From an uncultured Bacilli bacterium (lineage in GTDB: Bacteria > Bacillota_I > Bacilli_A > RFN20 > CAG-826): DNA of 64,000 nucleotides. Below, piece after piece: positions 2,986 to 7,940 of the stretch; the first letter of the stretch is position 1; every line of letters begins with the position of its first letter. The DNA is taken from contig CALWAS010000019.1 of NCBI GenBank assembly GCA_944375905.1, positions 5,394 through 69,393 on the forward strand, given 5' to 3'. The notes beneath the pieces are model-generated. The model saw only the letters and a program-made list of their open reading frames with translations. It did no database searches and was not told where the DNA came from. The position numbers were made by a program, and so were the translations under genes.

Positions 2986-3612
2986 ATGAAACGAAGCGAA
3001 AAAGAGAAAATGCTGGCTGGCGAAATATACAACCCGTCGGACCCGGAGCTTTCGCGGCTAGCCATCGAAGCCAAGCACAAGGCATACCTTCTTAACCAAT
3101 GCGATCCGTCGGACTCGATGGAATACGAAAAAAGACTGCGGAGCCTTTTCCCCCTCTTGGGGCCCAATTCATACATAGCCCCGAATGTACAAGTCGATTA
3201 CGGAATCAATTTCGCCACCGGGAAGAACTTCTTCGCCAATTATGGGCTGGTCGTCCTGGATTGCTGCCCGGTCACGGTAGGAGACGACGTCATGTGCGGC
3301 GTAGGCGTGCACATCGTCACGCCCGTGCATCCGTTGCTCTCGGAAGAGCGAAGCCAACGGCTCCATGAAGACGGCCGAATCTACGATTACGAATACGCTA
3401 AGCCAATCGCGATCGGCAACGGAGTATGGCTTGCTTCCGACGTAACCGTTTGCGGAGGGGTAAGGATCGGCGACCGTTCCGTAATCGCGGCCGGCGCCGT
3501 CGTTGTAAATGACATTCCTCCTGACGTTTTAGCCGGAGGGGTGCCTTGCAAGGTCATAAGAAAGCTTACCGAGGAAGACCGACTCGGCATTTACAAAGCG
3601 AATGGCGATTAA
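2986..3612 (+). CDS. maltose/galactoside O-acetyltransferase family (left-handed beta-helix)
   Basis: An internal ATG at 2986 in the 2590..3612 ORF gives MKRSEKEKMLAGEIYNPSDPEL (Mac-domain-like N-terminus), then hexapeptide repeats (IGNGVWLASDVTVCGGVRIGDRSVIAAGAVV). The upstream part of the ORF overlaps ppdK and its terminator. Confidence 0.85.
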   Translation: MKRSEKEKMLAGEIYNPSDPELSRLAIEAKHKAYLLNQCDPSDSMEYEKRLRSLFPLLGPNSYIAPNVQVDYGINFATGKNFFANYGLVVLDCCPVTVGDDVMCGVGVHIVTPVHPLLSEERSQRLHEDGRIYDYEYAKPIAIGNGVWLASDVTVCGGVRIGDRSVIAAGAVVVNDIPPDVLAGGVPCKVIRKLTEEDRLGIYKANGD

Positions 3613-3818
3613 TCGAATTCGTTTAGCAAAAGCGTCTTTTCGCTTTCGTAATCGAAGGCGGTGATTTCCTGCTTTCGAAAAGCTACCTCCAAGACCGCCA
3701 TCGCTTGGCTTTTGGCCTTGGACAAACGCAGTCTTTCAACCTCTTGAAGGATTTTTTCGCGAGAAGAAAGGCTTTTTTGCGGGGATTTTTTCTTAAAAAG
3801 CTTTGAAATGAAACTCAT
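3609..3818 (-). CDS. hypothetical 69-aa protein, last gene of the DUF362/macro operon
   Basis: Its ATG overlaps the macro-gene stop as ATGA (3815-3818). Predicted helical, with a K-rich N-terminus. No recognisable family. Its stop overlaps the convergent acetyltransferase stop. Confidence 0.5.
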   Translation of the reverse strand: MSFISKLFKKKSPQKSLSSREKILQEVERLRLSKAKSQAMAVLEVAFRKQEITAFDYESEKTLLLNEFD

Positions 3819-4609
3819 TGCAGCAGTTCTCCGTAAATCTCAGAGTCCTCTTTGTCAACAATGGCGAAGATGATAATGGGAGCCGTATCGTGACGGTTTA
3901 GATAAGTGTCTACGGCATCGACGGCAATCCGCGCCGCTTCTTTCTTGGGATAGCGGTTGCCTCCCGTGCCTAGCGCCGGAAAAGCGATGGTTTTGAGTCC
4001 GGCTTCCTCGGCCAGGCGTAACGACGACCAATAGCAGTACTTGAGGTCCGTCTCGTCTTTGCGGGAAGGGCGGACGCCGACTTTCGGGGCAATGGCATGG
4101 ATGACGTAACTTGCCGGTATGTTTCTCGCTTTGGTAAGAAACGCTTTGCCAGGCGCGGCAAGAGACCCATGGAGTTCGTTTCGATAAGGAGCTAGCTCCT
4201 CGAGGAGCGAAAGTCCGCACGCCTGGTGAATCTGCGCATCAAGCGAAGTGTCGAAGGGGACTTTCGATCCCTCCAAAGTAGGAGAAGCAGAATCGACGAT
4301 TGCATCTACTTGAAGGCGGAGAATATCCCCCTCGTAGACAGCGACCTTTGCCAGCCCGCTGACCGGTAGCGAATAGGCGCTTACCCAGCCGCGTTCGCGG
4401 CTCTCTTCGGAGAGAATCCCATCGAGGGCCAAAACGACTTCCTGTGGCGCCCTTTTGGTTCCGAAAAAGGAAACGAGGGCCGCAAGGGCCCTTCGTTTTT
4501 CGCTATAGGTGGCCAATCTCGGCGGGATGAATCGCTCAAAAGACGGAAGCTCGCCTCGAAAGTACGAGAGGAGAAAATCGACTCTTTGCTCGCGACTCGC
4601 GAAGTTCAT
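3815..4609 (-). CDS. macrodomain protein (protein-ADP-ribose hydrolase-like, with N-terminal helical extension)
   Basis: 264 aa. Macro-fold motifs DAIVDSASPTLEG, VIHAIAPKVG and IAFPALGTGGNRYP. The roughly 90-aa N-terminal extension resembles the SirTM-associated macro subfamily. ATGA overlap with the upstream gene. Confidence 0.85.
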   Translation of the reverse strand: MNFASREQRVDFLLSYFRGELPSFERFIPPRLATYSEKRRALAALVSFFGTKRAPQEVVLALDGILSEESRERGWVSAYSLPVSGLAKVAVYEGDILRLQVDAIVDSASPTLEGSKVPFDTSLDAQIHQACGLSLLEELAPYRNELHGSLAAPGKAFLTKARNIPASYVIHAIAPKVGVRPSRKDETDLKYCYWSSLRLAEEAGLKTIAFPALGTGGNRYPKKEAARIAVDAVDTYLNRHDTAPIIIFAIVDKEDSEIYGELLQ

Positions 4610-5721
4610 TTCATCTCAATCAGTTCGTACTCGCGAGAACCGAGACCGATTTCCTGGCCATGGATAAGCGCGGCTTCCCAGTCAACATGCGGATTGGAGT
4701 CGTGGAACACCTGTCCGGTCGCTTCTTCTTTCGCGAGACGATCGCCCAATTGAGAATTGCGGAATGCCGTCTGCTTGTTGCAAAGGTCGACGCAAGCCTG
4801 ATCAAGGGCGACCGGGTCAGTAGAGCAAAGCATTCCGACGTCAGGAATGATCGGGGCATCGTTTTCGCCATGGCAGTCGCAATTCGGCGAAACGTCGGTA
4901 ATGAGGCTTATGTGGAAGCAGGGACGTCCGGTGACAACGGCTTTGGCGTATTCGGCCATCTTGTAACCCAAAAGCGTATTGGAGTTGTACTCGATGGGAG
5001 AAATGGCATCGAAGGCGCAGGCGCCAATGCAGCGGCCGCACCCCTTGCACTTCTCTAGGTCGACAACGGCTTTGTTATCGACGTAGGTGATGGCGTCCGA
5101 ACCGCATTCCTTGGCGCATTTGCGGCAGCCGCGGCACTTGTCATGATCGAACCGCGGTTTTCCGTTGCTGTGCTGGTCCATTTTGCCGGCTCTTGAGCCG
5201 CAGCCCATGCCGATGTTCTTGATGGCCCCGCCAAATCCGGCTTCCTCGTGTCCTTTGAAATGGCTGAGTGAAATAAAGATGTCCGCATCCATTACAGCGC
5301 GGCCAATATGGGCTTCTTTGATATAGGTTCCGCCCTCAACGGGAACCTCCACTTCATCCGTTCCCTTCAAACCATCGCCAATTATTACGTGGCAGCCGGT
5401 CGTGGTTTCGTTAAAACCGTTTAATTGGGCGCAAGTGAGATGATCTAGGGCGTTTTTTCGATATCCAGGGTAAAGAGTGTTGCAGTCGGTCAAAAACGGC
5501 CTGCCGCCCTGTTCCTTGACGAGATCGGCAACCGCTTTAGCGTAATTCGGGCGAAGGAACGAAAGGTTCCCGTACTCGCCGAAATGCATCTTGATGGCAA
5601 CGAACTTTCCATCAAAATCAATGTCTTTCAACCCGCCCTTTATCAAAAGGCGCTGAAGTTTGTGAGTTAGAGATTCACCAACCTTAACGCGAAAATCAGC
5701 AAAAAAGACCTTGCTAGACAT
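4606..5721 (-). CDS. DUF362 domain protein with 2x[4Fe-4S] ferredoxin insert
   Basis: 371 aa. Two CxxCxxCxxxC motifs (CRGCRKCAKEC, CKGCGRCIGAC). DUF362-like N- and C-terminal parts (FVAIKMHFGE, NCDCHG). GGAGG lies 9 nt upstream. Confidence 0.85.
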   Translation of the reverse strand: MSSKVFFADFRVKVGESLTHKLQRLLIKGGLKDIDFDGKFVAIKMHFGEYGNLSFLRPNYAKAVADLVKEQGGRPFLTDCNTLYPGYRKNALDHLTCAQLNGFNETTTGCHVIIGDGLKGTDEVEVPVEGGTYIKEAHIGRAVMDADIFISLSHFKGHEEAGFGGAIKNIGMGCGSRAGKMDQHSNGKPRFDHDKCRGCRKCAKECGSDAITYVDNKAVVDLEKCKGCGRCIGACAFDAISPIEYNSNTLLGYKMAEYAKAVVTGRPCFHISLITDVSPNCDCHGENDAPIIPDVGMLCSTDPVALDQACVDLCNKQTAFRNSQLGDRLAKEEATGQVFHDSNPHVDWEAALIHGQEIGLGSREYELIEMK

Positions 5722-5734
5722 TCCTTATAACCTC

Positions 5735-6100
5735 CTAAAGCTTGTCGATGGCATTTTTAAACGATGTGGTCCCTTTAATTTTAGCCTCATCGGTGTTCGT
5801 ATTAACCACGGGGTTTCTGCTTTTTGGCAATCCGGAAACCGCTATCAGGTCTTGCTCGCGCTTCGGCAAAATTGTGGGTTGTGTCGGAGAAGGAATCTTT
5901 TGGCCAGCCGCGAGTTGAAATGGGATGCCGTTGGTTCTTACAACAGCTTTGAGAAAAAGGGTTACGGCTGCAGTCATCGATAGACCGATATCGTCGAGTA
6001 CGACTTCGGCCGAATGTTTTAGTTCACCATCAATTCGTAAATTAAGCGTATCTTTTGACATTTCATCGAAATAATAATCGATTTTTTGATGTAAAGCCAT
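5735..6100 (-). CDS. RelB/DinJ-family ribbon-helix-helix protein with a roughly 60-aa C-terminal extension
   Basis: LNLRIDGELKHSAEVVLDDIGLSMTAAVTLFLKAVVRTNGIPF matches the DinJ antitoxin fold pattern. Neither candidate start (M1 or M14) has an SD. The stop overlaps the SD of the DUF362 gene. Confidence 0.65.
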   Translation of the reverse strand: MALHQKIDYYFDEMSKDTLNLRIDGELKHSAEVVLDDIGLSMTAAVTLFLKAVVRTNGIPFQLAAGQKIPSPTQPTILPKREQDLIAVSGLPKSRNPVVNTNTDEAKIKGTTSFKNAIDKL

Positions 6101-6140
6101 TGTAACGTCGTTGTAACGCTATTTGCATTACGTTAACGTA
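6101..6140. promoter_or_regulatory. putative operator array upstream of the dinJ-like gene
   Basis: Direct repeats TGTAACG at 6101-6107 and 6112-6118 (11-nt phasing), plus the perfect 12-bp palindrome TACGTTAACGTA at 6129-6140, which contains the same TAACG/CGTTA half-sites. Confidence 0.4.
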
Positions 6141-6159
6141 CTACCAAGTGCTGCAAAAC

Positions 6160-6181
6160 GAAAAAAGCCTCCACAGAGGCT
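6160..6181 (-). terminator. intrinsic terminator after the 91-aa repeat-protein gene
   Basis: Hairpin AGCCTC-CACA-GAGGCT at 6166-6181. An A-run at 6161-6166 gives a T-run on the minus strand. Confidence 0.6.
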
Positions 6182-6200
6182 CGGTTATATTCAATGTGCT

Positions 6201-6476
6201 TTAGCCTATGGCCTTAAGCTGAATGTCGTTTCGCGAATCAATTTCGCCTTTTAACGATCCTCCGAAGTAAACATCGCCAACATCATCGATGTATCCAATC
6301 TTGACCCCATTGCGATAGAACCCACCTTCCGAATCAATTTGGCAAAATACCTTATTGCCCACATAGAGAATGCCCACGCCTTCGCTGTCAGAATCGACAT
6401 ACCCTATTCTTTCGCCGTTCAGATAAACATCTCTGTTGTAAACGCAAGTCCAATCCATATAAGGTCTGCAATGCAA
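6201..6476 (-). CDS. small protein with four internal ~17-aa repeats (4-fold beta-flower-like)
   Basis: 91 aa with four repeats of the pattern Y-x-N/G-G-x-x-I-G-Y-I/V-D (VYLNGERIGYVDSD / LYVGNKVFCQIDSEG / FYRNGVKIGYIDDVG / VYFGGSLKGEIDSRN). AT-rich flanks and its own terminator. Confidence 0.55.
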   Translation of the reverse strand: MHCRPYMDWTCVYNRDVYLNGERIGYVDSDSEGVGILYVGNKVFCQIDSEGGFYRNGVKIGYIDDVGDVYFGGSLKGEIDSRNDIQLKAIG

Positions 6477-6530
6477 TTTAAGATATAGATTTTAGGTATA
6501 GAAATACTTAGGTAATATCGAACCTATATG

Positions 6531-7940
6531 TCATTTATCTTTATTATTCTTCTTTAATTCCGCCCGCTTATGAAGCACAATCGAGTATCCAGGCTTGTTT
6601 GATTGGCGGCTTCTGGCAATTGCCATGGCATCCTGTTCAACGTTGTCTGTAATCGTGCTCCCTGCGGCTACGAAACACCCGTTTCCAAGAACGACCGGGG
6701 ATATCAAGGTAGACCCGGAACCGACAAAAACGCGATCGCCGATGTCGCTGTGGAATTTATTAACGCCATCGTAATTGGCAACGATCGTTCCGCATCCAAT
6801 GTTGCACCCAGATCCGATCTTCGCGTCGCCTAGATACGAAAGATGCATGGCCTTCGTCCCTTCACCGAAGTCGACGTTCTTTAATTCCATGAAGTTGCCG
6901 ATATGGCCTTTGTCATGGACCTTGCTATTTCCCCTAAGGCGCGCAAACGGACCAACCTGAACTTCTTCGCCAAGCTCGCAATCGACGACATGGGAGAAAG
7001 TGATGAAACCTCTTGAACCCATTTTTACGTTTTCGAGGTATGAATTGGGCCCGATTACGCTCTCTTCCCCGATCTCGGTCGCTCCCAAAATAGTGGTATT
7101 GGGCTTTATAACCGCGTCTGCGCCGATCTTTACGTATGGCCCGATATAGGCGGTTTCGGGATCTTCGATCGTAACGCCGCTAAGCATTAGGGCCTCATTG
7201 ATCCTTTTTTGGAGTGCCTTCGCGGCGGCAGCCAATTGAACGCGATCGTTGATACCGGACATTTCAACGGGATCAGGAGCGACGTAGCCATCTACCTTAA
7301 GTCCCTTATTCGCAAAAATGGAAATGACATCGGTCAGGTAATATTCGCCGGCGGCGTTGTCTGTCGTCAAAAGCTTCAACGACTCGAACAGGGTCCTGTT
7401 GTCGAATACATAAACGCCGGCATTGACTTCTTTTATGTTGTTTTGGTCTCCGACGAGATCCTTCTGCTCGACGATTCCTTTGACCAGCCCGTTTTCCCTA
7501 ACGATACGGCCATATCCTTTTGGGTTATCCGCGTGGAAGGTCAAAACAGTCAAATCATTATGATTGTTTTCGTGAAATTCAAAGAGGTTTTGCAGGGTTT
7601 TTCCCTTAAGAAGGGGCGTGTCGCCGCAGCATACGATGGTTTCGCCGTCCATTCCTTCGAGGAGAGGGGCCGCCATCATGACGGCATGTCCGGATCCCTT
7701 CTGTTCCTTTTGCCAGACGATGTCGGCGCGACCTTCCGCTATTTTCTTCGACGTCTCGCCGCCGAAGCCAAGCACCGTTATCAGCTTGCTAAGCGAGCAC
7801 GTCTCCAGCGCGTCCATAACGTATCCGAGGAGAGGAACGCCCAAAATGGGATAGGAAACCTTCGAGACATCGTCTCGCTTCGACTTCATTCTCGAGCCCT
7901 TCCCGGCGGCGAGGATGATTGCATATCTTGTATTGGCCAT
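6531..7940 (-). CDS. glmU: bifunctional UDP-GlcNAc diphosphorylase / GlcN-1-P N-acetyltransferase
   Basis: 469 aa. N-terminal LAAGKGSRM nucleotidyltransferase motif and C-terminal hexapeptide-repeat domain. Confidence 0.95.
   Translation of the reverse strand: MANTRYAIILAAGKGSRMKSKRDDVSKVSYPILGVPLLGYVMDALETCSLSKLITVLGFGGETSKKIAEGRADIVWQKEQKGSGHAVMMAAPLLEGMDGETIVCCGDTPLLKGKTLQNLFEFHENNHNDLTVLTFHADNPKGYGRIVRENGLVKGIVEQKDLVGDQNNIKEVNAGVYVFDNRTLFESLKLLTTDNAAGEYYLTDVISIFANKGLKVDGYVAPDPVEMSGINDRVQLAAAAKALQKRINEALMLSGVTIEDPETAYIGPYVKIGADAVIKPNTTILGATEIGEESVIGPNSYLENVKMGSRGFITFSHVVDCELGEEVQVGPFARLRGNSKVHDKGHIGNFMELKNVDFGEGTKAMHLSYLGDAKIGSGCNIGCGTIVANYDGVNKFHSDIGDRVFVGSGSTLISPVVLGNGCFVAAGSTITDNVEQDAMAIARSRQSNKPGYSIVLHKRAELKKNNKDK

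Follow-up and report, generated by a model that had tools for sequence, protein, structure and literature searches.

Here we describe a four-gene operon in a 64,000-nucleotide stretch of DNA (the window) from an uncultured Bacilli bacterium (GenBank contig CALWAS010000019.1). The operon encodes, in order, a ribbon-helix-helix (RHH) protein of the RelB/DinJ family, an iron–sulfur (Fe-S) protein of the DUF362 family, a macrodomain protein of the Zn-Macro type and a family-less protein of 69 residues (orf69). On balance, and with modest confidence, we favor the interpretation that this is an RHH-autoregulated operon that represents a SirTM-less, catalytically degenerate variant of the SirTM/Zn-Macro ADP-ribosylation systems, built on a genus-specific relB–macro core into which an Fe-S enzyme was inserted. 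The operon is not a classical toxin–antitoxin (TA) pair.

The known SirTM/Zn-Macro systems include an extended operon that encodes GcvH-L, a Zn-Macro, SirTM and LplA2 together with OYE and LLM oxidoreductases (PMC4518038, PMC11490716). In the characterized extended operon, the gene for the substrate, GcvH-L, lies directly upstream of the macro gene (PMC11490716).

Organization of the Operon

All four genes are located on the minus strand. The RHH gene, identified from the list of open reading frames (ORFs) and from family models, occupies positions 5735–6100 (121 residues) or 5735–6061 (108 residues; see below). It is followed by the DUF362 gene with its 2×[4Fe-4S] insert (4606–5721, 371 residues; PF04015), the Zn-Macro-type macro gene (3815–4609, 264 residues; PF01661) and orf69 (3609–3818). 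The initial annotation of this region had described four tightly packed minus-strand genes, a dinJ-like stop codon overlapping the GGAGG of the DUF362 gene, two ATGA overlaps and an AT-richer upstream end, all of which were confirmed. The TAG stop codon of the RHH gene overlaps an AGGAGG sequence, 9 nt ahead of the ATG of DUF362, while the DUF362/macro (4606–4609) and macro/orf69 (3815–3818) junctions are both ATGA overlaps. The G+C content is 0.40–0.455 across positions ≈5400–6800, compared to 0.50–0.645 in the flanks. A terminator-like hairpin on the minus strand (6165–6182), consisting of a seven-pair stem followed by a T-run, closes the upstream 91-residue gene, which gives the transcription unit of the operon its own 5′ end. 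The four genes thus form one tightly coupled operon, and the arrangement is more than a chance one, because the same order and tight spacing are found in at least nine loci of the genus (see below). The host genome is of chicken-gut origin. Three DNA runs from chicken gut gave Logan contigs that matched this stretch, with X1 and X2 spanning all of it with zero differences; these runs may include the sample from which the window was assembled.

The Macro Protein

The macro protein matched PF01661 with 93.4 bits, and its PDB matches were of the MacroD type, indicating a MacroD-type fold. It also aligned over its entire length with the Zn-Macro structure 8RSI (E = 3.9 × 10−36; residues 6–263 to 5–259), with a further match to 5KIV, and with the model NF003163 (residues 5–264 to positions 3–261 of 265), although the NF003163 score of 162.7 bits fell below the cutoff of 272. 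The 8RSI and NF003163 alignments include the N-terminal three-α-helical bundle, so that the protein retains this extension in addition to the macro fold, in agreement with the earlier suggestion of a long N-terminus of the SirTM-linked type.

Several motifs have been replaced. The zinc loop, Cx4HxC (LGCFIPMHNC), has become Sx4DxS (EGSKVPFDTS), in a gap-free alignment in which LLGCFIPMHNCID of 8RSI is matched with LEGSKVPFDTSLD of the window protein. NAAN has changed to DSAS (DAIVNAAN to DAIVDSAS) and STGxFxFP to GTGGNRYP. The Dx3H dyad is kept in the window protein (LDAQIH), but lost in the sister species L027 and L028 (LEAQIQ). The same substitutions of the other motifs occur in the closest relatives (P0001, L027 and L028). 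The position of the former zinc-ligand His is an Asp in the window protein and a Gly in a strain whose macro protein is 93% identical.

The gene is nevertheless maintained by purifying selection: the ratio of nonsynonymous to synonymous divergence (dN/dS) was 0.094 and 0.107 in two close pairs. Between subclades, the macro proteins are only 43% identical, compared to 90% for DUF362 and 78% for GlmU, and the window protein sits on a long branch of the macro tree. Since Zn-Macro activity strictly requires zinc (PMC11490716) and both the zinc loop and the NAAN motif are gone, the window protein has most likely lost its function as an ADP-ribosylhydrolase. It may instead be kept under selection as a noncatalytic accessory protein that binds ADP-ribose or a partner protein. 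The initial annotation had proposed a module that links an Fe-S protein to ADP-ribose removal under RHH control; the genes do make up one coupled operon, but the removal is doubtful in view of the replaced zinc-loop ligands and NAAN motif.

Two further macro genes deserve mention. In congener G003 (L013:7998–8863), the gene is split into ORFs of 195 and 93 residues by an apparent frameshift in a single metagenome-assembled genome. P0009 (L187:4584–5804), an unrelated orphan Zn-Macro homologue without an adjacent SirTM and near ctsR/mcsB, has independently changed from C/H/C to S/D/S, and also lacks the His of Dx3H.

SirTM and Other ADP-Ribosylation Partners

Outside the genus, the nearest relatives of the macro gene adjoin genes for proteins of 279–287 residues that have no Pfam match, but that match the SirTM structure 5A3A (E = 2.6 × 10−68 and 3.8 × 10−34). 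The Pfam SIR2 model was unsuitable as a SirTM detector, as SirTMs score under its cutoff (17.8 bits), and SirTM protein sequences were therefore used as queries. No SirTM homologue was found with such a query in the host genome (1.22 Mb in 27 contigs, 97% complete), where the one weak match was a canonical Sir2 protein with the catalytic His (C6:12011–12793; PF02146). GcvH (PF01597) and LplA (PF03099) were missing from all six genomes tested, while control genomes were positive, and the known SirTM substrate system is thus absent from the genus. The DarT model (PF14487) had no match in six genomes, but matched no control genome either. The absence of SirTM, GcvH-L and LplA2 genes beside the macro gene, noted in the initial annotation, therefore extends from the window to the 97%-complete genome, and the possibility that a cognate sirTM/gcvH-L operon resides elsewhere in this host did not hold up, the SirTM, GcvH and LplA searches all being empty.

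In two congeners, G017 and G025, a SirTM gene lies directly downstream of macro, giving the gene order relB–DUF362–Zn-Macro–SirTM. The encoded proteins have the diagnostic Gln instead of the catalytic His (‘YTQGDYGLFQC’) and are 57% identical to a 5A3A-like SirTM. Because of this arrangement in two congeners, we consider the window to carry a SirTM-less form of the operon. In G017 and G025, the operon most likely constitutes a complete writer/eraser ADP-ribosylation switch, in which the Fe-S protein sits in the slot of the substrate, GcvH-L, of the staphylococcal and streptococcal operon.

Conservation of the Locus in the Genus

We scanned 60 relatives for DUF362 and Macro and then read the loci; the remaining long macro genes found in the genus were also retrieved. 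The order relB–DUF362–macro was found in at least nine loci of the same genus, always between ispE–glmU–(91-residue gene) and the convergent acetyltransferase/ppdK genes, so the coupling is not a peculiarity of one strain. At least ten further congeners have relB–Zn-Macro at the same glmU/ppdK locus, and in most congeners this is a plain bicistron, with gaps of 3–15 nt or overlaps. All 17 relB-linked macro proteins form one clade (100/99), apart from the SirTM-paired Zn-Macros of other bacteria. The presence of the pair at the same locus across the genus and the single clade of its macro proteins identify relB–macro, and not DUF362–macro, as the conserved core; DUF362 is inserted in one subclade only.

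The DUF362 proteins of the genus are monophyletic (96/94) and nested among sequences from Treponema and Lachnospiraceae. Judging from these relationships, DUF362 was acquired once in the genus, between relB and macro in one subclade, apparently by horizontal transfer. The operon would then descend from a relB–Zn-Macro pair that all through this genus of gut Bacilli with small genomes is flanked by glmU and ppdK, and the acquired DUF362 gene, having come between the two, would have stayed tightly linked to macro.

Outside the genus, orthologues of DUF362 with 60–72% identity are widespread, occurring in Lachnospiraceae, Bacteroidales, Treponema and Oscillospiraceae. Of the 74 non-genus loci, 70 lack a macro gene and all lack a nearby relB. 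The expected co-location of DUF362 and macro genes in other genomes was thus borne out among congeners but not beyond them, and the idea of DUF362–macro as a widespread pair was not supported. In L097, L100, L102 and L103, from related Oscillospiraceae/Clostridia, a convergent gene for a short, canonical MacroD-type protein (176–211 residues) comes after the DUF362 orthologue. In G006 (L017:1211–4053), macro is followed by genes for a 462-residue membrane protein and for proteins of 297 and 137 residues, which by eye look ferritin/VIT1-like and Fur-like, respectively.

The RHH Protein and Its Putative Operator

The RHH protein matched PF04221 (E = 1.7 × 10−11) and TIGR02384 (63.6 bits, above the cutoff of 45.65). 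The most likely start codon of the gene is the ATG at 6061 (M14), which yields a protein of 108 rather than 121 residues: the TIGR02384 alignment begins at residue 14; the homologue in a sister strain (73% identical, with a macro protein that is 93% identical) is called at 108 residues; and the ATG at 6100 falls within a TACAAT −10-like box that is flanked by operator half-sites.

The putative promoter/operator was read from the minus strand at 6099–6140. It comprises a palindrome, TACGTTAACGTA (6129–6140), the elements GCGTTACA (6112–6119) and CGTTACA (6101–6107), and the TACAAT box itself (6099–6104). In each of the ten genus loci that were compared, the relB homologue is preceded by the inverted repeat GTAACGC-N5..13-GCGTTAC or by a closely similar one, and in at least seven of these it flanks or overlaps a TATAAT-like box. 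The RelB-like protein presumably binds to the GTAACGC/GCGTTAC repeat overlapping the −10 box and thereby represses its own operon.

An alignment of the RelB-like proteins of the genus showed a conserved N-terminal RHH domain, a variable, low-complexity charged linker and, at the C-terminus, the conserved motif S-[IF]-[KR]-x-A-I-[DE]-K-[LF]. This motif (TSFKNAIDKL in the window) is kept whether or not the locus includes DUF362. As had been observed, the antitoxin-like gene has no RelE/YafQ-type toxin: among the neighboring ORFs and downstream genes, no RelE/YafQ/ParE-type toxin family was matched in Pfam or NCBIfam. The conserved tail (...SIKKAIDKL) probably touches a partner protein, and most likely the macrodomain, since this is its sole invariant partner and the tails of antitoxins contact their toxins in a similar way. 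We found no published description of an RHH–macrodomain pair.

The DUF362 Fe-S Protein

The DUF362 protein matched PF04015 over its full length (positions 1–200 of 200; 197.3 bits, over the gathering cutoff). A 2×[4Fe-4S] ferredoxin domain, matched by Fer4 families, is inserted at residues ≈189–245, and a weak match to Lar_N (E = 5.8 × 10−4) covers residues 136–185. In an alignment of 35 sequences, the invariant or near-invariant columns were the eight cluster cysteines, C80, C174, C281, C283, H158, K168 and H184. With a dN/dS of 0.02–0.06, DUF362 is the strongly constrained gene of the operon.

The AlphaFold2 model of the protein (pLDDT 87, pTM 0.88) is predicted to have a LarA-like fold. Its best PDB matches in Foldseek were the LarA-type nickel-pincer racemases 6C1W, 2YJG, 7S91 and 5HUQ (probability 1.0, E = 10−6 to 10−4, TM 0.33–0.42); at the sequence level, no LarA match was found in the PDB. 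Pfam clan CL0471 groups DUF362 with the LarA superfamily as a sister family, and in LarA, H174, K184 and H200 are the catalytic His, the cofactor-tethering Lys and the nickel-ligand His (PMC11770544). The spacing of H158, K168 and H184 in DUF362 (H-x9-K-x15-H), within the Lar_N match, equals that of the LarA residues, to which they may correspond. The LarC nickel insertase (PF01969) was missing from all seven genus genomes searched, while control genomes were positive, and use of the canonical nickel-pincer cofactor by DUF362 is therefore unlikely.

Four congeners have a second DUF362 paralogue of 324–334 residues that lacks Fer4 (L020:6904–8860, L021, L022 and L023). It stands in divergent orientation to, or no more than 5 kb from, a gene for a second, highly degenerate macro-like protein of ≈242 residues, which keeps the three-α-helical bundle and matches PF01661 with 35.5 bits.

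Redox Genes Beside SirTM/Zn-Macro Pairs in Metagenomes

A metagenome scan with a SirTM alignment yielded 80 loci (L107–L186), in 73 of which a Zn-Macro gene is adjacent to SirTM. A gene for a protein of ≈205 residues that combines PNPOx_N with 2×[4Fe-4S] was present in 34 of the 80, almost always on the same strand and directly upstream of Zn-Macro, resulting in the three-gene order PNPOx-2×[4Fe-4S]–Zn-Macro–SirTM, which thus recurs in metagenomes of the gut (e.g., L107:4580–6834). When only the 51 loci with enough upstream sequence were counted, the gene occupied the upstream position in 23; among SirTM clusters at 75% identity, it did so in 11 of 35. Judged by eye from their sequences, the other proteins encoded in this slot include nitroreductase-like, PNPOx-like, NAD(P)-binding and nicotinamidase-like proteins. 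None of the 80 loci has a relB gene adjoining the pair. The two key SirTM/Zn-Macro papers make no mention of ferredoxin, Fe-S or PNPOx partners.

By their position, the Fe-S proteins, including the DUF362 protein of the genus, are candidate substrates or redox partners, which would link DUF362 functionally to ADP-ribosylation. A broader proposal is offered here as a tentative possibility: the RelB-like RHH protein and Zn-Macro may form an undescribed regulatory or TA-like pair; the SirTM/Zn-Macro switches of gut anaerobes may act on the upstream Fe-S or flavin redox protein (DUF362 or PNPOx-2×[4Fe-4S]), thereby supplying the unknown substrates of the minimal pairs; and the window macro protein may be a pseudo-enzyme that binds the Fe-S partner or the tail of the RHH protein.

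orf69 and Flanking Genes

No match for orf69 was obtained in Pfam, NCBIfam or PADLOC. Its C-terminal motif had raised the suspicion of a SHOCT domain, but there was no Pfam match even at E = 5. Nor was it recognizable as a SirTM remnant, as tblastn and blastp showed no similarity (best E = 0.5–1.8). The gene is kept in five loci of the window subclade (the window, L003, L027, L028 and G003) at 68–94% identity, with a dN/dS of 0.06–0.2 in distant pairs. Its position after macro is that of SirTM in the two congeners described above, and the 69-residue protein may thus occupy the former SirTM slot. The convergent maltose-acetyltransferase-like gene has its end at 3612, and its stop codon and that of orf69 overlap by 4 nt (3609–3612); there is therefore no intergenic space for a terminator.

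The 91-residue repeat protein encoded at 6201–6476 is family-less, and its gene is conserved beside glmU in those DUF362-bearing loci that were checked. The protein is among the fastest-diverging proteins of the region, with 84% identity between strains whose GlmU proteins are 98% identical. Between the window and L003 (3609–7940), synonymous divergence (dS) was 0.067 for glmU, 0.074 for orf69, 0.36 for macro, 0.57 for DUF362, 0.96 for relB and 1.58 for the 91-residue gene. This unevenness suggests recombination or allelic replacement centered on the AT-rich relB/91-residue gene segment.

Comparison with Known Systems

The operon resembles the SirTM/Zn-Macro systems in that its macro protein is homologous over the full length, having the three-α-helical bundle, a MacroD-type core and Dx3H, and in that SirTM directly follows macro in two congeners. 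As in the extended SirTM operon, with its OYE and LLM, a redox protein is encoded within the operon; its gene lies directly upstream of macro, at the GcvH-L position. The host of the window differs from these systems in having no SirTM, GcvH-L or LplA, the macro protein in having neither the zinc loop nor NAAN, and the operon in having a DUF362/2×[4Fe-4S] partner, a RelB-family RHH protein as its first gene product and orf69 in place of SirTM.

With RelBE and DinJ-YafQ, the operon shares a RelB/DinJ-type RHH first gene with a C-terminal tail, a palindromic operator and tight gene overlaps, but no RelE/YafQ/ParE toxin: the invariant partner in the genus is a macrodomain, and the operon resides at a syntenic chromosomal locus that is inherited vertically. 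DarTG likewise includes a macrodomain protein in a small TA-like operon, but the window macro protein belongs to the Zn-Macro/MacroD type and is not DarG-like; it has the three-α-helical bundle and lacks a C-terminal DarT-binding domain. The DUF362 protein resembles the LarA superfamily in the best structural matches of its model and in the H/K/H spacing, and differs from LarA by its inserted ferredoxin domain, its extra conserved cysteines and the lack of LarC in the seven genomes. Reversible ADP-ribosylation by DraT and DraG switches the nitrogenase Fe protein, which is an Fe-S redox protein. This is a conceptual precedent, from enzyme families unrelated to the ones described here.

Alternative Interpretations

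Several observations weigh against the interpretation of the operon as a degenerate SirTM/Zn-Macro system. DUF362 orthologues in other phyla usually stand alone, and their co-transcription with macro here may be opportunistic. Transcript support consists of a single short contig of 216 nt, which bridges the macro/orf69 junction at 98.6% identity and comes from an RNA-seq library in which DNA may be present. The Cx4HxC loop is intact in many congeners that have no SirTM, which implies a SirTM-independent role for the Zn-Macro proteins of this genus and means that loss of the writer alone does not explain the decay of macro; as a general rule, the idea that writer loss accounts for zinc-site loss is weakened. 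G023 and the orphan P0009 have each lost the zinc site independently. The SirTM gene of G017 and G025 could be ancestral, with repeated losses elsewhere, or a single later gain, and a single gain is more parsimonious on the macro tree. Finally, the S/D/S loop of the window protein could bind another metal, although the Asp/Gly variation at the former His position argues against a replacement metal site.

If opportunism were the whole explanation, DUF362 would have come to lie between relB and macro by chance, and the three proteins would be made from one transcript but act separately. The rarity of macro and the lack of relB at DUF362 loci outside the genus are consistent with this, as are the retention of DUF362 alone at another locus in G009 and the relB–macro pairs without DUF362 in most congeners. 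We nevertheless consider it rather unlikely that the operon is one of convenience, since the DUF362/macro junction is tight (4-nt or 1-nt overlaps, or gaps of at most 46 nt) in all DUF362-bearing loci in spite of deep divergence. The presence, in four congeners, of a second, diverged DUF362 paralogue beside or close to another degenerate macro-like gene, the four Oscillospiraceae-type loci in which a DUF362 orthologue is paired with a convergent MacroD gene, and the Fe-S and flavin proteins that fill the same slot ahead of Zn-Macro–SirTM elsewhere also speak for a more specific connection. Another explanation, which seems to us distinctly improbable, is that macro still encodes a zinc-independent hydrolase, acting for instance on O-acetyl-ADP-ribose produced by the Sir2 protein of the genome or on another ADP-ribose derivative, so that the operon would clear ADP-ribose metabolites. 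The host does have a canonical, His-bearing sirtuin, the gene is under purifying selection, and the protein retains the adenine-binding Asp of DAIV, the Dx3H dyad and the Gly-rich diphosphate loop; the NCBIfam O-acetyl-ADP-ribose deacetylase models match it at ≈105 bits, under their cutoffs. However, both Asn residues of NAAN and all three zinc ligands are lost, in a subfamily in which activity tracks zinc binding (PMC11490716), and the former His-ligand position varies even between the 93%-identical proteins. Moreover, the macro gene is split in G003, and G009 has Sir2 but no macro match, which many other congeners also lack.

A TA-like or defense module appears less probable still. Here, the RelB protein would be an antitoxin against a growth-inhibiting macro, DUF362 or ancestral SirTM protein, or else the pair would guard against ADP-ribosylating toxins of phages or competitors. 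This would account for the relB–macro bicistron, with overlaps typical of type II TA systems, for the antitoxin-family RHH protein with its conserved, partner-like C-terminal motif and palindromic operator, and for the hypervariability of relB and the 91-residue gene between near-identical strains (dS of 0.96 and 1.58, compared to 0.067 for glmU) in an AT-rich region. Against this, no known toxin family is represented among the operon genes in Pfam or NCBIfam, and PADLOC gave no relevant match for any of the proteins, SirTM included, its sole match being a weak one to BrxP (E = 0.0016) across the Fer4 part of the DUF362 protein. We know of no macrodomain or DUF362 toxin. The fixed, syntenic chromosomal locus and its vertical inheritance across the genus are also unlike typical mobile TA and defense islands.

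Significance

GcvH-L is the sole known substrate of SirTM, and no targets are known for those SirTM/Zn-Macro pairs that lie outside the extended operon (PMC11490716). The DUF362/2×[4Fe-4S] protein and the PNPOx/2×[4Fe-4S] fusion are candidate SirTM substrates that are encoded in the position of the substrate and can be cloned. On its own, the host genome offers a moderately interesting evolutionary variant; the lead to redox partners and the pairing of RelB with a macrodomain are more valuable. The genus constitutes a natural series, from a full writer/eraser operon, through an eraser alone with its zinc site intact, to an eraser that is zinc-less yet still under selection, with a RelB-family RHH protein added as a conserved partner of the macrodomain. 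Such a series can reveal the role that a macrodomain takes on after ADP-ribosylation is gone.

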